Source: a virus (taxonomy: Duplodnaviria > Heunggongvirae > Uroviricota > Caudoviricetes). From it: a stretch of 38,746 nucleotides of DNA. The notes beneath the pieces were generated by a model. It made no database searches. It saw only the letters and a program-made list of their open reading frames with translations, and was not told the DNA's origin. Positions 2,904 through 38,746 of this stretch are shown piece after piece; the stretch's first letter is position 1; the number at the start of each line of letters is the position of its first letter. Where the stretch lies: the IMG/VR virus record IMGVR_UViG_2740892229_000013, one strand, 5' to 3'. The translations under genes and the position numbers were made by a program.

Positions 2904-3047
2904 ATGGGCGATTTCAAGAAACGCCTGAAGGAAAGAGCCGAGATGGTCAGAAAGCAAAACGCCTCTTCTGTCATCAGATACGCAAGGCAGTTTAGTCGCA
3001 ACAACAAATCAGTTGAGGAAAAGATCCTTAGCGTAATCGGTCGATAA
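2904..3047 (+). CDS. possible small basic protein (47 aa), not in ORF track
   Basis: ATG 2904 to TAA 3045-3047, K/R-rich; weak RBS; followed by hairpin 3051-3078. Confidence 0.25.
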   Translation: MGDFKKRLKERAEMVRKQNASSVIRYARQFSRNNKSVEEKILSVIGR

Positions 3048-3177
3048 TTATTAAGGCCATCAGCATTGGTGGCCTTAAATGACCATCCTGTTTCCCGCAG
3101 GCTAAAAACACCAACCTCTTACCTCCAGGCAACCGACAAACCCACCTGTTCCCGTCCGGCTACCGCAACTTTCCACT

Positions 3178-3204
3178 TTGACGCCTTATTCGTACAACGA
3201 TAAT
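3178..3204 (+). promoter_or_regulatory. candidate sigma70-like promoter (TTGACG, 15 nt spacer, GATAAT)
   Basis: -35-like 3178-3183 and -10-like 3199-3204 upstream of gene 3252; spacer shorter than optimal. Confidence 0.35.
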
Positions 3205-3219
3205 TAACACAAACAAGAA

Positions 3220-3230
3220 AACAATTTGTT
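3220..3230. promoter_or_regulatory. palindrome AACAATTTGTT (candidate operator)
   Basis: Same 11-mer as 2456-2466, upstream of gene 3252. Confidence 0.4.
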
Positions 3231-3251
3231 ATTTACGATAAGGAATTAATC

Positions 3252-3734
3252 ATGAATTTTATCGCTACTGTAAACGCACCCGCACATGGCAATATCGCTG
3301 TAACGTTCTCTGACATTGAAAAACGAGTACTTGGTGCATGGCGCGACAATGAGACGGTAGAACTGTCAGCACAAGAAAAATGCATTATTGCACGCGACAT
3401 CATTGGCAATCGTCGTTACTCGCGGGTATTTGAGAAAGCGTATGTGGTAAATTCTGGATTCGGAACGTTCGTCTTTCCGGTGCGCTCCGGGCGATTCTGC
3501 CAGTCCAAGCTGATTGAGTTCGCTACGCAGATTTCTGTCTGGATTAAAACTCAATCGTCGTTCAAATTTTCCGACGATGAAGCAGTATCGCAGGGGATGC
3601 GGATCGCCAACAATGCAATTAAATGCAAAAACATTACGTATACCGCTGGCGTTGATACATGGAAACTGTTTTGCGCTAACTTTATGCTGAATGTATACGC
3701 AAGCAACCGCATCCACATCCTTGATGGCGTGTAA
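3252..3734 (+). CDS. hypothetical early protein (160 aa)
   Basis: ORF with AAGGA RBS 3240-3244; terminator follows. Confidence 0.55.
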   Translation: MNFIATVNAPAHGNIAVTFSDIEKRVLGAWRDNETVELSAQEKCIIARDIIGNRRYSRVFEKAYVVNSGFGTFVFPVRSGRFCQSKLIEFATQISVWIKTQSSFKFSDDEAVSQGMRIANNAIKCKNITYTAGVDTWKLFCANFMLNVYASNRIHILDGV

Positions 3735-3736
3735 CT

Positions 3737-3768
3737 GAGAAGAGGGCCAGAAACGGCCCTTTCTCTAT
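3737..3768 (+). terminator. rho-independent terminator (imperfect stem)
   Basis: AGAGGGCC / GGCCCT stem with T-rich tail immediately after stop of gene 3252..3734. Confidence 0.55.
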
Positions 3769-3782
3769 AGCCACCAGCTGCC

Positions 3783-3946
3783 GCAGGGAAATTTTCAGAA
3801 ACGGCGAGGAACGTATTCGTGAGCCGACGGGGAACGGCCAGGATTTTTTCGGGAAACGGCTGCATTCGCCTTTGTGTAGAAAAAACATCGGGAAGCTGGT
3901 GGAATCCAACCAGCGGTTGTCGGACAGGTGAGCGGGGAAAATCATG
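3783..3946 (+). repeat. Second cluster of TTTTCRGGGAAACGGC-type direct repeats (iteron-like)
   Basis: Copies near 3783, 3795, 3826, 3848, 3887, 3930; same core as array at 599-746. Confidence 0.55.
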
Positions 3947-4272
3947 ATGACTTTCGTCGCCTGAGACATCCAGATTTCTTTCGTAGCGTAATCACATATG
4001 TGATTAAGTGGTGTGATTATGTGAAAAATCACGCGCACATAATACGCGAGCGGATACGGAACAAAACAAAATGCCGATCCGCGCCGACAATTAAACGCGG
4101 ATCACATAGCAAGAATAAAAGCCAATGATTAACCATACACCATAACGCAATATAACGCGATTTAAGCGCGTTAATGCGCTAAGTAATGGGTATGTACTGG
4201 TAAGGATATAGAAGCGCGTCTATGGCGTTATTTTGGCGCTTATTTTTATGTTGTTGGCTTGAGTCAAAGACA

Positions 4273-4297
4273 ATAAAAAAAGCGCCATCATTGGCGC
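4273..4297 (-). terminator. terminator for leftward transcription
   Basis: Palindrome GCGCCATCATTGGCGC (4282-4297); on minus strand hairpin is followed by TTTTTTT. Confidence 0.55.
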
Positions 4298-4327
4298 GTT
4301 ATGGTGGAAGTATTGGAAACGAAAAAA

Positions 4328-4344
4328 GCGCCCATAGTGGGCGC
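4328..4344. terminator. 17-bp palindrome GCGCCCATAGTGGGCGC, hairpin/terminator-like, copy 1
   Basis: Perfect 7-3-7 inverted repeat flanked by A-run and T-rich tract; identical copy at 4824-4840. Confidence 0.5.
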
Positions 4345-4350
4345 TCGATT

Positions 4351-4581
4351 TTATTTATGTAGACTGATTTCAAATCCCATTTCTACAAACGCTTTTAACA
4401 TTAAAAATATATCAGCGTCGTTCACGTCTGCTTTTTTTCGCTCCTGGTCGCTCAATAAGTCAATTTTGCGCGTCGTTTCATCTATAAGCTCGACTGCGCG
4501 CCCAGCGTAACCAGCGATCCCAGCGATGCGATTAACATAATATTCGTTATGGACGTTAACGCCAGCGATAAGAACAAACAT
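4351..4581 (-). CDS. hypothetical small protein (76 aa) in AT-rich island
   Basis: ORF with AAGGAGC RBS 6 nt upstream of ATG on minus strand. Confidence 0.45.
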   Translation of the reverse strand: MFVLIAGVNVHNEYYVNRIAGIAGYAGRAVELIDETTRKIDLLSDQERKKADVNDADIFLMLKAFVEMGFEISLHK

Positions 4582-4601
4582 GATTAAGCTCCTTAAAAAA
4601 A

Positions 4602-4805
4602 TTAAATAGAATTTTGAAGTTTTCCGATTAATGCGCTTAAACGTAAGTATTCACGTTTGCGCTTGCAATCTCGCTTGCTGTTAAGCAAATCAGAAAACGT
4701 AAAATTTAATTGGTCGCGTTGCGCGATTAAATCATCGATTAATTCCAGTTTATAAGCGCGATACTTTGCGCGATATTCCGCGCGGATCTTGTCATAGCTG
4801 ACCAT
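4602..4805 (-). CDS. hypothetical small protein (about 67 aa)
   Basis: ORF track 4602..4850; AAAGGAGC RBS favours internal ATG at 4805; upstream part of tracked ORF is the palindrome. Confidence 0.4.
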   Translation of the reverse strand: MVSYDKIRAEYRAKYRAYKLELIDDLIAQRDQLNFTFSDLLNSKRDCKRKREYLRLSALIGKLQNSI

Positions 4806-4823
4806 TTTCAAAGCTCCTTTAAA

Positions 4824-4840
4824 GCGCCCATAGTGGGCGC
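4824..4840. promoter_or_regulatory. 17-bp palindrome GCGCCCATAGTGGGCGC, copy 2
   Basis: Identical to 4328-4344; lies between co-directional minus-strand genes. Confidence 0.5.
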
Positions 4841-4853
4841 TTGATTCCATTAA

Positions 4854-5504
4854 TTACGCTTTGAAAGCATCAGCTAAATAATTGTAGAAATCATTTTTAA
4901 TGAAGCGATATTGCTGAGTACCAGCTTTCGCACTCCCAGCTCCTTTGACTTTTTCAACAAGTCCAAGACGTTCGCAAAGATTGATCAACTGGTTGGCTTG
5001 AGTATAGCCAGCGTCCAATTTAATTTCACACGCTTTTTTAGCTTCATTCATTAAATCGAAAACAGCGCCATTGGTGAACGTGTCGATCTCGTCGTTAATC
5101 ATATCGATTAAAGCGAATACACGAGATCCTGACATATCAGCGATGGAATAAACGCATTTACCAGATTTAATTGATTTAACCAGATAAACCAGTTTTTCCA
5201 GAGAATAACTATTAGTCATTGCATCACGGAAAAATACTTCTGGCGCTTGTTTGCTTGCTTTAATCGCATAGTAGAAAACAGAGCATAATTTTTCGTCTTC
5301 TACTGCGTTTACGACGTTGTTGATGAAGTAAGCAAGTTTAGTGGTCGCAGCTTGCATATTTGCTTTGTCTGCTTTAGTGTGCGTACCATTTTTATAATGT
5401 TCGTTATATGTTTGAGTTGCCAGATCTGCTTTATCGCGCAGCTCGTCGGATACAATAGATGCAGCTTCAATGATGGACTTTTTAGAAATGATAATGTTAG
5501 CCAT
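4854..5504 (-). CDS. hypothetical protein (216 aa), AT-rich island
   Basis: ORF with AAGGAAA RBS; no recognisable catalytic motif by eye. Confidence 0.5.
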   Translation of the reverse strand: MANIIISKKSIIEAASIVSDELRDKADLATQTYNEHYKNGTHTKADKANMQAATTKLAYFINNVVNAVEDEKLCSVFYYAIKASKQAPEVFFRDAMTNSYSLEKLVYLVKSIKSGKCVYSIADMSGSRVFALIDMINDEIDTFTNGAVFDLMNEAKKACEIKLDAGYTQANQLINLCERLGLVEKVKGAGSAKAGTQQYRFIKNDFYNYLADAFKA

Positions 5505-5744
5505 GATAATTTTTCCTTATGTAAATTTAAAATTTATTGTCGTTAGCGTCTTCGCTTTCGACGAGTTCAATTATCGATACGCGAAAAAAGATTGCAAGTG
5601 TTTTTTTTAAATTTTTTGCAGGGATGAAAGTCCTAGAAATAAAAGCGAGATCGTCGAAGGTGTTCCCTAAATAAATAATCGATTCCGGCTTTCGACCTTA
5701 TATATATTTAGGTTATTTGATTTGTAGATATAAAGAAGTGATGT

Positions 5745-5775
5745 GAAAAATAATAACCGGACTTAGCCGGTTATT
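5745..5775 (-). terminator. terminator of minus-strand helicase operon
   Basis: AATAACCGG (5752-5760) / CCGGTTATT (5767-5775) stem; T-run follows on minus strand. Confidence 0.6.
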
Positions 5776-5787
5776 AACCTTATAGAT

Positions 5788-6096
5788 TTATTGAACAGAC
5801 TCTACAGCCTTACGATTGGTGTCAAATAGCGCATCAACGAACTGTGCCGATGACTCGCTAGATTCGCAATCCAACATTGCCCGTTCTTCATTTGCCACTT
5901 TCTTACACAGTTCCACATTCTCACCTATCGCTTTTCCTGCTTTTACGGCTGCCGAAAATTGATACATGCAAACTGATACATTCTGAGACGTTGAGCACAC
6001 GTCATTCATCAGCGACTGAATGACAGGCTTATAGTCCATTGCATTTGCCGCAACTGAGCAAAGTAAAAATAATGGTGGTAACAATATCGATTTCAT
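5788..6096 (-). CDS. small secreted/periplasmic protein (102 aa) with N-terminal signal peptide
   Basis: N-terminus MKSILLPPLFLLCSVAANA looks like a Sec signal peptide; 4 Cys in mature part; start 3 nt after upstream stop. Confidence 0.55.
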   Translation of the reverse strand: MKSILLPPLFLLCSVAANAMDYKPVIQSLMNDVCSTSQNVSVCMYQFSAAVKAGKAIGENVELCKKVANEERAMLDCESSESSAQFVDALFDTNRKAVESVQ

Positions 6097-6099
6097 AAC

Positions 6100-6624
6100 T
6101 CAAAAAGGCAAAATTCGTTCAACCCAATCGAACAAAACAACTATTTTTCTACCGTTCTCGACACGTAGTGTAACCTGACAAGCATCTGCGCCTGCTGACA
6201 CCCCCTCAATTTCACGGCCATCCGCCATGTACACCCTTATAGATTTGTTTGCTTTGTAGGCTTGGTTGCAAATTGCAAAAAAATCGCGGCGTGATGGCCG
6301 ATTATCGACATAATCAGGGTGAACTGTTAGTCGACCTTTGAAATCGTGAGCGATACTGTCAACCACACCTGATTCAATTGTACTAATGCGTTCAAGTGGG
6401 AGCCTTATACGATTTTCTTTGTCAAAAGGGGCTGGGCAAAGGTCAACTTTGTTACGAGATGGCATGAGGCCATAAACGTACATGCAAAACGCCTGGCCAT
6501 CTTCGAGAGTGACCCTTACAGGAATTTGTTCTCTGCGCCAGAACATCAGTAGTTTTTCAACGTTAGTGTAATCTCGCGGCCAGAGTTCAGCTTGGATACC
6601 GTAGGTAATATCTTTGGTTGTCAT
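6100..6624 (-). CDS. hypothetical protein (about 174 aa)
   Basis: ORF track 6100..6702; ATG 6624 begins 4 nt after lipoprotein stop (coupled), so upstream extension rejected. Confidence 0.5.
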   Translation of the reverse strand: MTTKDITYGIQAELWPRDYTNVEKLLMFWRREQIPVRVTLEDGQAFCMYVYGLMPSRNKVDLCPAPFDKENRIRLPLERISTIESGVVDSIAHDFKGRLTVHPDYVDNRPSRRDFFAICNQAYKANKSIRVYMADGREIEGVSAGADACQVTLRVENGRKIVVLFDWVERILPF

Positions 6625-6628
6625 GTCA

Positions 6629-7093
6629 TCACAGAGTTGTTGGCAGAATGTCGATGTCACCAGAATTGCTGGTGAACACCCTGAACGCTTTTGTGTCTCC
6701 ATTCTTCAGAGTCGTTTCTCGCTCTTGACGAGCGGGGTTTAGAGCACATAAACCTGCACCTTCAAGAGATGCACCCACAATTAATTCTCCGGCATTTAAA
6801 TGGAAAGTCGCTTTTTCGCCTGTAGCCAGTTTTGCGACAGTTTCGCCATTGATGAAAATGGAAGCATCACATCCAGCTCCTACAAAACCTGTGTCTCTCA
6901 TTACCACCAACGTAGCTGGCGCTGCGCTTTGATACTTGAACACTTTGGCCTGCGGTGCTGGTTTGGCGTCATGGATTGATATTGGACGTGATTGGCACGC
7001 GGTAAGCATCAACACTGGTAACGTTAGTAGAGGGAGAAGCGAGTATTTCATGTTAGTTTTAGAACAGAAAGTGAACAGTATGGGAGACTTCAT
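6629..7093 (-). CDS. putative lipoprotein (lipobox LTAC)
   Basis: Hydrophobic N-terminus LLPLLTLPVLMLTAC-Q with lipobox; AGGGAGA RBS before ATG 7093; alternative start 7051. Confidence 0.6.
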   Translation of the reverse strand: MKSPILFTFCSKTNMKYSLLPLLTLPVLMLTACQSRPISIHDAKPAPQAKVFKYQSAAPATLVVMRDTGFVGAGCDASIFINGETVAKLATGEKATFHLNAGELIVGASLEGAGLCALNPARQERETTLKNGDTKAFRVFTSNSGDIDILPTTL

Positions 7094-7119
7094 CTTTGTC
7101 TCCCTAATTGATAGCGTGA

Positions 7120-7398
7120 TTATTTTAATCTGCTTAATAGCGTTTCGAGATCTTCCTTTGTCATATTAGAGTTCTCATAGATACGCATGATTTTCTCACG
7201 AGTCTTAGCGGAAGCCCCGACAGAAGATATAACCTTGTCAAAGTCGGCCATTGTCAATTGTTCCAGAATGGTATTAATGACTTCAGCCTTAGACATTTTG
7301 ATATTTTTTTCTTTTAGTTTCACTTGAAACTTTCCAAGTTTGTCATTGGCCTTATCAGACAATGCTACCTGACAGTAAGTTGTTTTCTTTTCACTCAT
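7120..7398 (-). CDS. hypothetical small protein (92 aa), possible DNA-binding
   Basis: ORF begins 2 nt after helicase stop. Confidence 0.45.
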   Translation of the reverse strand: MSEKKTTYCQVALSDKANDKLGKFQVKLKEKNIKMSKAEVINTILEQLTMADFDKVISSVGASAKTREKIMRIYENSNMTKEDLETLLSRLK

Positions 7399-7400
7399 AA

Positions 7401-8960
7401 CTAATCTCGTTTCAGAACTCCAAAATCGAATGCTCCATCAATAGGCAATACACCTTCTGCAAAGCCAGGTGTGGTGTCGATGATGTGTTTTCGCTCATAA
7501 GAGTGAGACAACAGGTATTTGTTGCTAATGTCAATGAAATCAGTGATAAAACACACGTTTGCCTGATTTTTTTTGGCTCGTAAGCCACGACCGACACGCT
7601 GTCTCATTTCAACTTCTGCTTTCCCACCACCAGCAAGAATGACCGCACCAACGCTTGGCACATCAACACCAACATCCAGAATAGTCGAGCCTATTAAAAC
7701 ATCTATTTCACCAGACGCTAAACTGTTCAGCTTTGCTTGCCTTGTCGTCTGGTTAGATTCCCCATAGATGAAATCAACTCTAAGACCTGACTCCTTCATC
7801 ATCTCCATCAGGATTTGCCCGTGGCGTTTAAGACGAACCAGAGTCATGCAGTTGAGTGAATGTTGCTTATAAAGCAATGCCTCGCGCACTATGGCCTCGT
7901 TACGTCCCAAATTATACACGATCCCCAACTGATAAGCCTTTTGGTAGGCGGTGCTCATACCAACTCTAAAATTGAGATGTTTGTTGGCAAGTTCGGCCTT
8001 GATTCTGGCCTCGTCTGGCTTGTAGGCAACTTTATGATAAAGGAAGTACGGCTTTGCCAGAATGCCTCGATCAATCAGGTACTTTTCTGTGACTTTAATT
8101 TCAATTCGCCCGGCCACCGCCATCAGGCGCATGTTGGCTTCCGTCGAATCCTTCATGAACGGCGTGGCTGTAAGCGCCAGACGATAGTCTGCGTTCACAC
8201 ATAATCTGGCGATGTCATAGAAATTTGAGCCTGAAGACTCATGCGCCTCTTCCAGAATAAGAAGAGAGACACTTGAAAGGAAGCGTTTCACCAACTCCCG
8301 ACGTTTGAGGTGGTAGCTTTTCTTATCTGGTGTTGCATCGCGTGGTGGTTCTTCGAGGAAACTTGCAAGAGTTTGAACTGTAGCGACGTTGATATGTCGT
8401 GATACCTGGAACTCACCCGAGCCAATGACTCCAACCTTTTGGTCTTTTAACCACGGTTCGCCATTTTTGGCGCGGTAGTCGATGGATCTCTGGAAGTTTT
8501 CGGCCATTTGAAACATCAGAACAGAGCGGGTTGTTAAAAATAATGTCATTCGACCGATACGTGCAGCTGCTTTGCAGGCAACATTAGATTTCCCGCCACC
8601 AGTAGCGATCTGCGCAATCATCATTCCCTCTCGAACCAGTGTTTCCACAGTCTGATCCTGATACGCATAATCAGGATTGTATGGGAATGGGTTAACCGCC
8701 GGATTTGGTTTTCCAAGCGCCGGGGCTTTGTCTTTGCGGATATGAACACATTTGATGCCCGCCTTGTTCAAGTTCGCCGCTACAGGCTTGGCAAAGCCTG
8801 CAGGGAACGAGTTTTTACTCCAGTTGAACATTGTGCTTGTGCCCTTCCAGTCGCCAGTCTCGACTTCGTAGCTCAACATCTGTTGCACCAGTTGCTTTAC
8901 CTTGTCATCTGCGCCAGAAATAAGCGCATTAACTGCGTTAGATACAATCCGAACAGTCAT
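7401..8960 (-). CDS. SF2 DNA/RNA helicase (DEAH-type)
   Basis: Walker A ATGGGKSN, DEAH-like LILEEAH, motif III LTATP, motif VI QRVGRGLR; strong RBS AAGGAAAGAGG. Confidence 0.85.
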   Translation of the reverse strand: MTVRIVSNAVNALISGADDKVKQLVQQMLSYEVETGDWKGTSTMFNWSKNSFPAGFAKPVAANLNKAGIKCVHIRKDKAPALGKPNPAVNPFPYNPDYAYQDQTVETLVREGMMIAQIATGGGKSNVACKAAARIGRMTLFLTTRSVLMFQMAENFQRSIDYRAKNGEPWLKDQKVGVIGSGEFQVSRHINVATVQTLASFLEEPPRDATPDKKSYHLKRRELVKRFLSSVSLLILEEAHESSGSNFYDIARLCVNADYRLALTATPFMKDSTEANMRLMAVAGRIEIKVTEKYLIDRGILAKPYFLYHKVAYKPDEARIKAELANKHLNFRVGMSTAYQKAYQLGIVYNLGRNEAIVREALLYKQHSLNCMTLVRLKRHGQILMEMMKESGLRVDFIYGESNQTTRQAKLNSLASGEIDVLIGSTILDVGVDVPSVGAVILAGGGKAEVEMRQRVGRGLRAKKNQANVCFITDFIDISNKYLLSHSYERKHIIDTTPGFAEGVLPIDGAFDFGVLKRD

Positions 8961-34660: not shown

Positions 34661-35623
34661 ATGTGGTACAGGGAAGGTACTATCACATTTACACAGGGCA
34701 GCAATACTCTGGTTGGGGCAGGGACAGCCTGGAACGTAACAGCTAATGGTGTGTTGCCGGGGATGATCGTCATTGGCCCCGACAATAAGCTGTATGAGAT
34801 CAAGCGCGTAACCAGTGATACGAACATTGTTCTCTCAGAACCTTATACCGGCGAAACTCAGTCTGAAGTTCCGTGCCGAATCATTACGACCTATGAAGGC
34901 GACTTAACACAGTTTAGCGCGCGCTTTACAGCACTAATGTCGCGTATGTCGGCTGATTCCAAGTCCATGCGCAGTTGGTTGACTGCTCTGGATGAGGTGA
35001 CAATCGAGCGTGAAGACGGTACAGAAGTGACCGTTAAGCCGCTAATGCAGATCGTCAACGAGCACAACGAAAACGTTGAGTGGTATAAAAATAACACTGA
35101 CGCGATTGATGCTGCTGGCGACAAAGCTCGTGAGGCGGCGGCCAGTGCTGCCGCAGCAGCAGAAAGCGCCAATATCGCTGGAGAAAAAGCCTCTCAAGCG
35201 TCTCAAAGTGCATCCGCTGCAGAGTCCTCAAAAAGCGCGGCGGCCACCAGTGCCGGTGCCGCGAAAACGTCTGAAACGAATGCTGCAGCGTCACAAAAAT
35301 CTGCAGCCACTTCTGCATCCACCGCGACCACGAAAGCGTCAGAAGCTGCCACCTCAGCCCGGGATGCGGCGGCCTCAAAAGAGGCAGCGAAATCATCAGA
35401 AACGAGCGCAGCCTCGAGCGCCAGTAATGCCGCTTCCTCGGCAACGGCGGCAGGAAATTCCGCGAAGGCGGCAAAAACGTCCGAGACGAACGCCAGGTCT
35501 TCTGAAACGGCAGCGGGACAGAGCGCCTCGGCTGCGGCAGGCTCAAAAACAGCGGCTGCGTCGTCTGCCAGTGCAGCGTCAACAAGTGCCGGGCAGGCCT
35601 CAGCCAGTGCCACCGCCGCCGGA
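34661..35623 (+). CDS. tail fibre protein with Stf-like Ala/Ser-rich central repeats, 3-prime end lost at N gap
   Basis: AAGGAG RBS; unique N-terminal about 150 aa then Ala/Ser/Thr-rich repeats nearly identical at DNA level to 36548-36815 and 36826-37170; runs into gap at 35624. Confidence 0.65.
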
Positions 35624-35633
35624 NNNNNNNNNN
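35624..35633. other. run of 10 N (assembly/scaffold gap 1)
   Basis: Literal n characters; reading frame and gene identity change across it. Confidence 0.95.
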
Positions 35634-35708
35634 GTCGCTTATGAAGGCTCCGGCAGTGGTGACTGGCGCACTGACGGGTTCATCGTGGGTGTTGGTTATA
35701 AATTCTGA
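35634..35708 (+). pseudogene. lom: 3-prime remnant of lom-like outer-membrane protein gene (last 24 codons)
   Basis: Encodes VAYEGSGSGDWRTDGFIVGVGYKF-stop, matching the lambda Lom C-terminus as I recall it; no upstream part present. Confidence 0.7.
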
Positions 35709-35734
35709 TTAGCCAGGTAACACAGTGTTATGAC

Positions 35735-35761
35735 AGCCCGCCGGTTCAGGCGGGCTTTTTT
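35735..35761 (+). terminator. rho-independent terminator
   Basis: AGCCCGCC (35735-35742) / GGCGGGCT (35749-35756) then TTTTT. Confidence 0.75.
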
Positions 35762-35772
35762 GTGGGGTGAAT

Positions 35773-38746
35773 ATGGCAGTAAAAATTTCAGGTGTACTGA
35801 AAGACGGCACAGGAAAACCGGTACAGAACTGCACAATCCAGCTGAAAGCAAAACGTAACAGTACCACGGTGGTGGTGAACACGCTGGCATCTGAAAATCC
35901 GGATGAAGCCGGGCGTTACAGTATGGACGTTGAGTACGGTCAGTACAGCGTTATTCTGTTGGTGGAAGGATTCCCGCCGTCACATGCCGGGACCATCACA
36001 GTGTATGAAGATTCCCGACCCGGTACGCTGAATGATTTTCTCGGTGCCATGACGGAGGATGATGCCCGTCCGGAGGCACTGCGCCGTTTTGAACTGATGG
36101 TGGAAGAGGTGGCGCGTAACGCGTCCGCGGTGGCACAGAACACGGCAGCCGCGAAGAAGTCAGCCAGCGATGCCGGCACATCAGCCCGTGAGGCGGCAAC
36201 CCATGCGACTGATGCTGCAGGCTCAGCACGTGCAGCCAGCACATCAGCCGGGCAGGCCGCGACGTCGGCTCAGTCAGCGTCTTCCAGCGCAGGAACGGCA
36301 TCAACAAAGGCTACTGAAGCATCAAAAAGTGCTGCCGCTGCAGAGTCCTCAAAAAGCGCGGCGGCCACCAGTNNNNNNNNNNCGCAGCCAGCACGTCAGC
36401 CGGACAGGCCGCGTCGTCGGCTCAGTCAGCGACTTCCAGCGCAGGAACGGCATCAACAAAGGCCACTGAAGCATCAAAAAGTGCTGCCGCTGCAGAGTCC
36501 TCAAAAAGCGCGGCAGCTACCAGTGCCAGTGCCGCGAAAACGTCAGAAACGAATGCGGCAGCGTCACAACAATCAGCAGCCACTTCTGCATCCACCGCGA
36601 CTACGAAAGCGTCAGAAGCTGCCACCTCAGCCCGGGATGCGGCGGCTTCAAAAGAGGCGGCAAAATCATCAGAAACGAACGCATCCTCGAGCGCCAGTAG
36701 CGCAGCTTCCTCGGCAACAGCGGCAGGAAATTCCGCGAAGGCGGCAAAAACGTCAGAGACGAACGCCAGGTCTTCTGAAACGGCAGCGGGACAGAGCGCC
36801 TCGGCTGCGGCAGGCNNNNNNNNNNGGCAGCGTCACAAAAATCTGCAGCCACTTCTGCATCCACCGCGACCACAAAGGCGTCAGAAGCTGCCATCTCAGC
36901 CCGGGATGCGGCGGCCTCAAAAGAGGCAGCGAAATCATCAGAAACGAACGCATCATCAAGTGCCAGTAGTGCAGCTTCCTCGGCAACGGCGGCAGCAAAT
37001 TCTGCGAAGGCGGCAAAAACGTCCGAGACGAACGCCAAGGCTTCTGAAACGGCAGCGGGACAGAGCGCCTCAGCTGCGGCAGGCTCAAAAACAGCGGCTG
37101 CATTATCTGCCAGTGCCGCGTCAACAAGTGCCGGGCAGGCCTCAGCCAGTGCCACCGCCGCCGGAAAATCGGCAGAAAGTGCTGCATCGTCTGCTTCAAC
37201 AGCCACAACGAATGCTGGCGAAGCCGCTGTACAGGCCAGCGCAGCAGCGAGGTCAGCTTCCGCAGCGAAGACATCCGAGACGAACGCGAAAGCGTCGGAA
37301 ACCAGCGCAGAATCCTCAAAAACGGCAGCGGCATCGTCCGCCAGTTCGGCGGCGTCATCGGCATCATCGGCGTCTGCTTCAAAAGATGAGGCGACCAGAC
37401 AGGCGTCAGCAGCGAAGAGCAGCGCCACGACGGCATCCACGAAAGCAACAGAGGCGGCAGGCAGTGCGACGGCGGCAGCACAGAGCAAAAGTACGGCGGA
37501 ATCCGCGGCAACGCGCGCCGAGACAGCGGCAAAACGGGCAGAGGATATTGCATCCGTCGTGGCGCTTGAGGATGCGAGCACGACGAAAAAGGGGGTAGTA
37601 CAGCTCAGCAGTGCGACCAACAGTACGTCTGAAACGCTGGCGGCAACGCCAAAGGCAGTAAAATCAGCCTATGACAATGCAGAGAAACGTCTGCAGAAAG
37701 ACCAGAACGGCGCTGATATACCCGACAAGGACCGCTTCCTGAGTAACATTAATGTTTACAGCAAAGGTGAAGTGGATCAGAAAAAGGGGATGCGATACGT
37801 TGTGGTAAATGCCCCGGCGGGTGTCCAGGAAGGTAAATATTATCCGTTAGTGATAAAAAGGAATGACAGCCATCGGGCATCCCGCGTTGTCATTTCAACG
37901 CCAAGTCGCTCAGCTAATCACAGAATGAATAATTGTGAGTTTAATGGTTTTGTTTGCGCAGGCGGCTGGACGGACCGGGGTAGCTATGCCTGTGGTATGT
38001 TCTGGGCTTATTCAACATCGGAACGCGCTATTCATTCCATTCTGATGAGTAATAAAGGCGATACCGTAGACAGCGTATTCTATATAGAAGGTGGGGCATT
38101 TCCCGTAGAGGTCTTTTTAGAAGAAGGTCTCTCCGTTACTGCACCTGCTTCTGATTATATTGTTGCTGAAACGACTTATAAATTTGGCGCAACTGATCCT
38201 TATTCTGAATCAGTTGCGGTAAATTTAATTTTAGATTTTAAACAAGGTAATGGATTTTATAGTTCATATCCTGTTTTGAGTAAGTCAGACATTAGCGGGA
38301 ATAAGATTTACGCTAATGATGAAGTTATTGTCCGTAGTCAGAACGCGTTAAGGATGATTGCAGGTGATTACGGTGTCATATGGCGAAATGATGGAGCAAA
38401 TACTTACTTGCTCATGACTGATAAAGGCGACCAGTACGGTGGCTGGAACGGTCTTCGACCATTTGCAGTAAATAACGCAACAGGTGAAGTGACGATCAAT
38501 ACACCACTTAATTCTCCTAAGGGGATTAAGGGAAATTCTGATACAGCTACGAAACTTCAGACAGCAATAAAAATATCTGGTGTTTCGTTTGATGGTTCTA
38601 CTGATATCACTTTAACCGCTGCGCATGTTGCTGCTTTTGCCAGAAGAGCAACGGATACGTATGCCGATGCGGATGGGGGCGTTCCATGGAATGCCGAATC
38701 AGGCGCTTACAATGTCACCCGCTCTGGCGACAGCTATATTCTGGTT
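35773..38746 (+). CDS. stf: lambda Stf-like side tail fibre, interrupted by two N gaps, 3-prime partial
   Basis: N-terminus MAVKISGVLKDGTGKPVQNCTIQLKAKRNSTTVVVN matches lambda Stf as recalled; frame 1 to 36372, frame 0 for 36384-36815, frame 2 from 36827 to window end with no stop. Confidence 0.8.
36373..36382. other. run of 10 N (assembly/scaffold gap 2)
   Basis: Literal n characters; flanks are about 93 percent identical redundant copies. Confidence 0.95.
36816..36825. other. run of 10 N (assembly/scaffold gap 3)
   Basis: Literal n characters; sequence after gap restarts about 270 bp upstream in the repeat unit. Confidence 0.95.

Follow-up and report, generated by a model that had tools for sequence, protein, structure and literature searches.

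The IMG/VR virus record IMGVR_UViG_2740892229_000013 is a stretch of 38,746 nucleotides from a virus of the Caudoviricetes (hereafter, the window), and three genes, all on the minus strand, occupy its positions 4130-5780. A preliminary description of the window placed these open reading frames (ORFs) correctly and read them as an AT-rich moron cassette, acquired horizontally and bracketed by identical 17-bp palindromes. The palindromes lie where it had put them, with GCGCCCATAGTGGGCGC at 4328-4344 and again at 4824-4840 and the related GCGCCATCATTGGCGC at 4282-4297. Here we call the repeated hairpin T1, the related one T2 and the genes g1, g2 and g3, numbered against the direction of transcription. 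Read along the minus strand, the order is a promoter, g3, a first T1, g2, g1, a second T1 with a run of six U residues (U6) and T2 with a run of seven (U7). Because of this order, the identical pair brackets only g2 and g1 rather than all three genes, and g3 lies upstream of the first copy (Table 1). The locus is not a recently acquired three-gene moron but a core, probably lytic-phase operon with a slot for small-gene cassettes.

Positions 3700-6100 of the window are 100% identical to an E. coli plasmid of 110,001 bp (NZ_CP027358.1) and also match 814 PLSDB plasmids, including Yersinia pestis pMT1 and Salmonella Typhi pHCM2. The 4130-5780 region matches the Escherichia phages CMS-2020a (96%), PhiR41_1 (94%) and Cyrano (92%), as well as Salmonella phage SSU5 (83%) and Klebsiella phage-plasmids. 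On the strength of this identity and these matches, we assign the window to a phage-plasmid of the SSU5/pHCM2/pMT1 type. Elements of this type are often found in clinical Klebsiella, E. coli, Enterobacter, Salmonella Typhi and Yersinia pestis, and for most of the non-structural genes they carry no function is known.

Table 1. Features of the g3 operon in the order of transcription
Feature	Position	Strand	Basis
Terminator hairpin of the preceding gene, TAATAACCGGCTAAGTCCGGTTATTA then TTTTT; upstream limit of the g3 transcription unit	5751..5776	-	Terminator scan
Three conserved upstream blocks, candidate regulator-binding sites	5627..5707	-	Alignment of relatives
Block ATATATAAGG	5696-5707	-	Alignment of relatives
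Block TTTATTTAGGGAACACCTTCGA	about 5654-5675	-	Alignment of relatives
Block ATTTCTAGGACTTT	5627-5640	-	Alignment of relatives
Predicted sigma-70-type promoter P_g3: TTGCAA, 16 nt, GATAAT; A-rich tract before it	5570..5597	-	Promoter scan, alignment
Conserved 5' leader (C-G/A-TCGAAAGCGAAGACGCTAACGA) and g3 ribosome-binding site (RBS), TAAGGA	5505..5563	-	Alignment
g3: core 216-aa protein, PHROG 1513; predicted N-terminal helical bundle and C-terminal winged-helix-like domain	4854..5504	-	PHROG match, AlphaFold2 (AF2) model
Internal T1, GCGCCCACUAUGGGCGC on the transcript; then UUUAAAGGAG (g2 RBS), no U-tract	4824..4840	-	Folding, -15.1 kcal/mol; not called by terminator scan
g2: 67-aa basic helical protein, PHROG 6145; cassette diverged in step with g3	4602..4805	-	PHROG match, comparison of synonymous divergence (dS)
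g1: 76-aa acidic protein, predicted ferredoxin-like alpha+beta fold, PHROG 1585; horizontally exchanged cassette	4351..4581	-	PHROG match, model, dS comparison
9-bp tandem repeat in g1, encoding an IAG-IAG-YAG tripeptide repeat	4496..4525	-	Repeat family D3
Terminal T1 and U6; first strong intrinsic terminator of the operon	4322..4344	-	Terminator scan; -15.5 kcal/mol
T2, GCGCCAAUGAUGGCGC and U7; second, tandem terminator, related to T1	4275..4297	-	Terminator scan; -10.7 kcal/mol

The AT-richness that had drawn attention to the locus was borne out. The 4130-5780 region has a GC content of 38.1%, compared with 47.8% for the whole window; only 0.4% of 1651-bp intervals are as low, and the minimum of the window falls there. 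With a GC of 0.381 and a GC at third codon positions of 0.350, g3 is the lowest among the 35 ORFs of at least 100 aa (mean 0.476, sd 0.041). The GC contents of g1 (41.1%) and g2 (38.7%) are also under the window mean, yet they are near that of the adjoining core gene g3. What did not hold is the use of composition as a sign of recent transfer. In relatives, g3 has 38-41.5% GC where neighboring genes have 46-52%, and the Pectobacterium g3 has 33% in a locus of 36%. Because g3 is AT-rich in every relative, low GC is an old property of this gene, and the locus shows that an island of deviant composition need not be recent cargo but can consist of an ancient core gene.

The distribution of the three genes separates g3 from the other two. 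By tblastn, g3 is present in 815 PLSDB records, g2 in 517 and g1 or its 50%-identical paralogue g1' in 373. All 12 SSU5-like phage records examined carry g3, and its homologues, which are 53-96% identical, lie almost exclusively on contigs of ~103-113 kb from E. coli, Klebsiella, Salmonella, Enterobacter, Citrobacter, Cronobacter, Serratia and Buttiauxella. The ratio of nonsynonymous to synonymous divergence (dN/dS) of g3 is 0.05-0.13, indicating purifying selection. The comparison with relatives that the preliminary description had called for thus divides its cassette in two: g3 occurs in every relative examined, and horizontal acquisition can apply only to g1 and g2, which vary in presence and have been exchanged.

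We compared the state of the position behind g3 first in nine annotated relatives and then in 85 more loci, which gave 93 classifiable loci in all. The window and PhiR41_1 carry g2 and g1; SSU5, E. ludwigii and pF132_1 carry g2 only; pB16KP0177-3, Cyrano, pMT1 and pHCM2 carry g1 or g1' only; and Cronobacter has no small gene. Over the 93 loci, the T1 copy number equals the number of cassette units plus one. Empty slots, found in Cronobacter, Buttiauxella and others, have a single T1 (11 loci as scored, 12 after re-reading L089). Single cassettes have two copies (53 loci as scored, 55 after re-reading L034, where g1 is frameshifted, and L066, where the hairpin has a 4-nt loop), as do the 20 loci in which g2 is fused to g1 or g1'. 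Three copies accompany the arrangement g1'-T1-g1 (2 loci) and the arrangement g2'-T1-T1, in which T1 replaces T2 (4 loci, with a fifth, L095, that has two copies); g2' is a divergent g2 of 67 aa (38% identical, E = 1e-8). Arrays of two cassettes with one T1 as separator occur at L033 and L037. In a distant relative whose g3 is 49% identical, three tandem T1 copies stand without a cassette, and Pectobacterium has g3 followed by one unrelated terminator.

All four cassette types (g1, g1', g2 and g2') are bounded by the same 17-mer, and differing cassette states occur on g3 backbones that are 96-99% identical in nucleotide sequence. The type of cassette goes largely by host genus, with g1 with or without g2 in E. 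coli, g2 in Enterobacter, g1' in Yersinia and S. Typhi, and none in Cronobacter. As judged from these comparisons, g1 and g2 are promoter-less accessory cassettes that share one slot directly after g3, and what moves is one or two small genes flanked by hairpins, not the AT-rich block of three.

Synonymous divergence adds evidence that g1 has moved between elements. Between the window and each of L005, L011 and L060, dS is 0.8-1.0 in g3 and ~0.2 in the adjoining g1. Identity between L011 and the window rises from about 65-88% to 97-100% just past the upstream T1, and in L005 the tract of high identity over g1 stops at T1/T2. These steps suggest that the hairpins mark recombination joints. The dS of g2 tracks that of g3, with a dN/dS of 0.04-0.13. 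In L034 (IMG/VR contig 2740892439_000007), the g1 frameshift lies in an A7/A8 run, GAGCGAAAAAAAGC, and leaves a truncated product of 52 aa, which suggests that some lineages can do without the g1 cassette or turn it off.

The preliminary description had further proposed that the hairpins are termination or processing signals, and their structure agrees with this. The two copies of GCGCCCATAGTGGGCGC compare with 0.04 matches expected by chance, and none of 100 shuffled sequences reached the observed number. Together with T2, they are the sole GCGCC..GGCGC hairpins in the window, and within the 110-kb plasmid T1 is restricted to this locus. The direct repeat is longer than the palindrome itself, extending over 34 nt at 88% identity (4325-4358 and 4821-4854). 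On the coding strand, the hairpins form stable stem-loops (z-scores of -2.8 to -3.5 against shuffled sequences), located 6-16 nt past the stop codons of g3 and g1. The terminal T1 and T2 carry the U-tract of an intrinsic terminator, whereas the internal copy is followed by UUUAAAGG.

This difference between copies is general. Across 83 unique regions, the uninterrupted T-run after T1 measures 1-4 in 75/75 internal copies and 5-7 in 85 of the 87 terminal copies. In 68/75 cases, 17-22 nt separate the internal hairpin from the ATG of the cassette; the RBS occupies this space, and the promoter scan called no promoter-like site there. Because the spacer fits an RBS and holds no promoter, we infer that the cassettes are transcribed from P_g3 through the internal hairpin. 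By its sequence, the internal T1 is no longer a canonical terminator, though it keeps a perfect stem after the loss of its U-tract.

The stem is invariant in nearly all T1 copies, with point substitutions in two copies at L053, and the adjacent spacers differ. Variation is found in the 3-nt loop, which reads CTA in 141 of 177 copies and its exact inverse, TAG, in 20, the latter split equally between first and later copies. At one locus, a copy with the loop TCA is paired with one that reads TGA. Inverted loops occur in unrelated lineages (L001, L004, L018, L020, L027, L031, L035, L050, L081 and others). Template switching or inversion at a palindrome is expected to yield loop flips of this kind. 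The pattern suggests recurrent loop inversion or template switching at T1 and a hairpin that is active as DNA.

Further observations on the hairpins come from individual contigs. T1 stands in place of T2 at L091-L094, and L137 (1494-1603) has three T1 copies 44 nt apart and no cassette, which suggests that T2 arose from T1 by divergence, or that gene conversion takes place among the hairpins. The 22-mer comprising T1 and its T-tract recurs unchanged at L097 (12915-12936) and L170 (~1469-1490), two contigs of an unrelated phage type, where it ends an ORF of ~65 aa beside baseplate-like genes. This exact match is far above chance for the collection, and either terminators are shared between phages or both derive from a common host terminator. 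Among the hairpin-carrying contigs in IMG/VR, 77 of 79 have the hairpin at the locus studied here.

Upstream of g3, a region of 283 bp can be aligned in all relatives, Pectobacterium included. The terminator of the preceding gene is kept in the aligned enterobacterial and Yersinia relatives, and another terminator takes its place in Pectobacterium. The three upstream blocks are invariant or nearly so in eight diverse relatives, again including Pectobacterium, whose g3 protein is 35-39% identical and which has TTGAAA, 16 nt and TATTAT at the position of P_g3. Blocks B and C each have a single occurrence in the window and in the whole plasmid, and the leader motif TCGAAAGCGAAGACGCTAACGA is found once in the plasmid. 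A search for a shared operator showed that the g3 promoter blocks recur nowhere else in the window or the full plasmid, and since they occur at one locus only, no regulon can be defined.

Published transcriptomes of a Cyrano lysogen allowed us to ask whether the operon is expressed from a prophage. These data cover one relative, not this exact element, and few conditions. In the LF82 transcriptome in LB, values of log2(5 + FPKM), where FPKM is fragments per kilobase per million reads, are 2.78/2.32 for the g3 homologue CYRAN_113 and 2.32/2.32 for the g1 homologue CYRAN_112 (PMC9928086, S1 Table), equivalent to ~0-2 and 0 FPKM, respectively. Six hours into macrophage infection, both genes rise only to the level of structural genes; the 13 Cyrano genes that exceed background at least 5-fold include neither of them (PMC9928086). 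The operon is silent in this lysogen, which argues for a role in the lytic cycle as the most likely one. The label of moron thus fits g1 and g2 insofar as they are present in some relatives and absent in others; it does not fit their lack of a promoter of their own or of prophage expression.

That none of the three products has an assignable motif was confirmed. Pfam, NCBIfam and PADLOC scans of g1-g3 gave no significant match, and the PHROG matches are to function-unknown families, apart from one spurious transporter label. An exhaustive profile search for g3 among 1.84 billion representative proteins found 23 proteins only, with no annotated relative among them, and searches of the PDB sequences found no match to g3 itself or to its profile. 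By these searches, g3 forms a very narrow family. Its AF2 model (mean local confidence, pLDDT, 84; predicted template-modeling score, pTM, 0.76) shows a C-terminal domain with the three-helix bundle and beta-hairpin wing of a winged helix. In the alignment, residues T168, Q169, N171, Q172 and R179 of the putative recognition helix are invariant, as are the lysines of the wing. Judging from the model, g3 is probably a nucleic-acid-binding regulator, and DNA would be its predicted ligand.

The families of g1 and g2 are confined to SSU5-like elements, and both are under purifying selection. g2 has an isoelectric point (pI) of 9.7, no hydrophobic segment (maximum 19-residue hydropathy 0.06) and no GMN motif. 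Its homologue SSU5_119 (L002, 5123-5326; PHROG 6145) has been labeled 'MIT family metal ion transporter CorA'. CorA/MIT proteins have ~300 aa, two C-terminal transmembrane helices and a GMN motif. With no transmembrane segment, no GMN and no Pfam CorA match, we reject the label as an artefact, which corrects a transporter annotation that has spread through databases, including the PHROG category 'moron, auxiliary metabolic gene and host takeover'. g1 has a pI of 5.2, and its single confident model is a ferredoxin-like beta-alpha-beta-beta-alpha-alpha-beta arrangement with generic structure matches only. Its homologues carry one to four copies of the tandem repeat and accordingly have 70, 73, 76 or 79 aa (alignment A3), so 4496-4525 reads as a variable-number repeat inside the gene. 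In the window, g1 follows g2 directly, with no hairpin at the junction, TAATTTTTTTAAGGAGCTTAATCATG. If the small proteins are host-specific effectors, cassette typing could inform on host range; in any case, g3, g1/g1' and g2/g2' are three narrow protein families now marked out as a candidate functional unit.

The explanation that best accounts for these results, and that we consider rather probable as a whole, is a core minus-strand operon with a cassette slot in which T1 serves both as terminator and as recombination joint. A conserved sigma-70-type promoter with its own upstream sites would drive g3. In the minimal state, T1 with its U-tract and T2 would end the operon after the g3 stop codon, and most relatives would have, between two T1 copies, one or two cassettes without promoters (g2, g1 or paralogues of these). 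The internal T1, having no U-tract, would then permit read-through from P_g3 into the cassettes and act as an intercistronic stem-loop, either an attenuator or a stabilizer of the RNA, and the terminal T1 and T2, with their full U-tracts, would end the transcript. The repeated T1 would offer a short block of identity at which recombination between elements or between copies could add, remove or swap cassettes. The operon as a whole would act during lytic growth.

Three observations weigh against parts of this explanation. The C-terminal domain of g3 is net acidic, with a pI of 5.0, which does not favor binding to DNA. The g2-g1 joint in the window has, in place of a hairpin, a short AAGGAGCTT repeat at both ribosome-binding sites, and because of this not every cassette joint formed at T1. 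Finally, the high-identity tract of L011 runs ~200 nt beyond T2, as would be expected if exchange took place in the flanks.

A more specific proposal, compatible with the cassette-slot operon although we think it unlikely, is that the locus is an anti-defense or takeover operon resembling acr-aca, in which g3 would be a helix-turn-helix (HTH)-type regulator of a strong early promoter and g1 and g2 would be small variable effectors that neutralize the defenses of particular hosts. As in acr-aca operons, a conserved HTH-type protein would be co-transcribed with variable small proteins (67-76 aa here, one acidic and one basic) under a strong regulated promoter, a likeness predicted from architecture. 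The link of cassette type to host genus, the rapid cassette turnover, the silence in lysogeny and the cis-elements dedicated to P_g3 are consistent with such a role. However, Pfam, NCBIfam, PADLOC, PHROGs and PDB sequence searches revealed no similarity to a known Aca, Acr or anti-defense family, and the gene order is the reverse of that in typical acr-aca operons. g2 co-diverges with g3 like a resident partner, and the host correlation may only reflect lineage. To our knowledge, a 216-aa g3 with a large N-terminal domain is unlike the known Aca proteins.

Recombination in the flanks could also explain the exchange by itself. In that case, the hairpin would have no role in recombination; cassettes would have brought or evolved their own terminator copies, and homologous recombination in g3 and the intergenic region would have exchanged them. 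The flanks are long and conserved, and the extended tract in L011 fits, but we regard this as improbable in view of the slot's regularities. Four cassette types are bounded by the same 17-mer with differing spacers beside it, copies follow the N+1 rule with a separator in two-cassette arrays, internal copies keep a perfect stem without a U-tract, and identity steps at the hairpins.

At the other extreme, T1 might be an integrase-free cassette-capture site of SSU5-type elements that extrudes or folds in single-stranded DNA, as the recurrent loop inversions would suggest, and stacks promoter-less genes behind g3 by template switching or short homology, with g3 controlling an early lytic burst and the cassettes providing host-specific anti-defense or takeover cargo. 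This combination is a long shot, and we offer it as speculation.

Less tenable still is the original view of all three genes as one recently acquired AT-rich moron with its own signals and a new property for the lysogen: the region is the GC minimum, strong terminators stand at its end and its products have no assignable function, but g3 is universal in the group and AT-rich everywhere, the identical hairpins leave g3 outside, the cassettes have no promoters, the Cyrano lysogen does not transcribe its g3 and g1 homologues, and the restriction of all three families to SSU5-like elements leaves no outside donor in view. It is equally hard to credit that the hairpins are ends or targets of a dedicated mobile system (integron attC-like, IS200/IS605 or REP/RAYT type). 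Each unit is delimited by an identical palindrome, the arrays at L033 and L037 have one separator per cassette, the loop inversions point to a palindrome active as DNA, and two unrelated phage contigs share the 22-mer; against this, T1 occurs at this locus only in the 110-kb element and in 77/79 of the IMG/VR hairpin contigs, no recombinase adjoins the slot and the only integrase of NZ_CP027358.1 is ~57 kb away. The attC site of integrons is an imperfect palindrome with R''/R' GTTRRRY cores (PMC9892861), and T1, a perfect 17-nt palindrome, differs from it in lacking both that core and the size of attC.

The regions on either side of the operon hold features of their own. An Rfam scan of 3000-7500 at a permissive threshold gave chance-level matches only, far under gathering scores. 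A search by eye for the promoter of a small RNA downstream of T2 gave no support for a conserved one: the TTGACT at 4263-4268 varies among relatives and lacks an acceptable -10 element, and relatives do not keep the hairpin at 4075-4104. The ~500 bp at 3770-4280 have no annotated gene in any relative, and their length is conserved, with 558-643 bp from the last T1 to the 160-aa gene beyond. Conserved motifs such as GTACATACCCATTAC (4183-4197) lie in this interval, and this lineage also has a perfect 16-bp palindrome there, AATCACATATGTGATT (3990-4005). The interval has no Rfam match, and relatives do not share its local hairpins; an origin, an operator region and an unrecognized RNA are all conceivable. 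Just past the terminator of the 160-aa gene, positions 3750-3860 (minus strand) have three exact copies of GCCGTTTC and one GCCGTTCC within ~110 bp. This block is among the most conserved of the intergenic region in 79 unique relatives, the 110-kb plasmid has only two other copies, and the block looks like an iteron-like array of putative binding sites.

On the other side, 6100-6702 (minus strand) encodes a full-length homologue of FljA, the phase-1 flagellin repressor (Pfam PF03614, E = 2.5e-84; a weak Hfq-like match is also present). Its place beside the operon is conserved in all enterobacterial and Yersinia relatives that we examined, and the Cyrano lysogen transcribes the homologous gene, CYRAN_114. 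Going by the homology, the protein might affect host flagellin expression. Between the FljA-like gene and a conserved terminator lies a second accessory gene (5788-6096, minus strand), whose 102-aa product has a Sec-type signal peptide and five cysteines; it is present in the window, pHCM2 and pF132_1 and absent in SSU5, pMT1, Cyrano and others. A 92-aa ORF upstream of the helicase (7120-7398, minus strand) is AT-rich too, at 35.8% GC; in contrast to the g3 operon, the corresponding Cyrano gene, CYRAN_117, is among those expressed in the lysogen, at 12-fold over background. The opposite compositional outlier is 35000-37500, with 55-62% GC and a strong AT skew (up to 0.42), where ORFs 34661-35644 and 35773-36969 stand beside a large tail protein gene.

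Comparison with known systems sets the slot apart from each of them. A moron, in the concept of Hendrix and colleagues, is an extra gene with its own promoter that is expressed from the prophage. g1 and g2 resemble morons in being variable at the same position and in ending at an intrinsic terminator; their GC content is under the window mean but close to that of g3. They differ in that they have no promoter and g1 is silent in the Cyrano lysogen, and g3 is not optional. An operational definition of the moron is used in PMC9928086. The end of the operon resembles other tandem Rho-independent terminators, with T1-U6 and T2-U7 48 nt apart, stable GC stems and a position right after the last stop codon. 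It departs from them by the extra T1 inside the operon, which lacks a U-tract, and by a copy number that follows the number of cassettes. In the library of papers searched, we found none with the hairpin sequence or an account of the slot, and two candidate precedents were set aside, a phage integron paper that does not concern this slot and a heteroresistance phage-plasmid preprint on an unrelated family.

The closest described analogue appears to be the PeSL cassettes of T4-type phages, in which repeated promoter and stem-loop motifs flank small ORFs and mediate their shuffling (PMC2839356, PMC4122927). In both systems, a short repeated motif with a terminator stem-loop flanks small function-unknown genes. 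The repeats are also where close relatives differ by indels or by replaced genes, and the mechanism proposed is that they recombine with one another. PeSL elements combine a strong early sigma-70 promoter with the terminator and occupy many sites in the hyperplastic regions of virulent myoviruses; excised mini-circles, produced when the repeats recombine, are a further mark of the PeSL type. The repeat described here is instead a bare 17-nt hairpin (17-21 nt in all) without a promoter, at one slot after one core gene of a temperate phage-plasmid, and its internal copies no longer carry a U-tract, which would allow read-through into the cassettes. With one hairpin, N+1 copies per N units and the internal U-tract lost, the slot provides a simple and countable example of how small genes are gained and lost.

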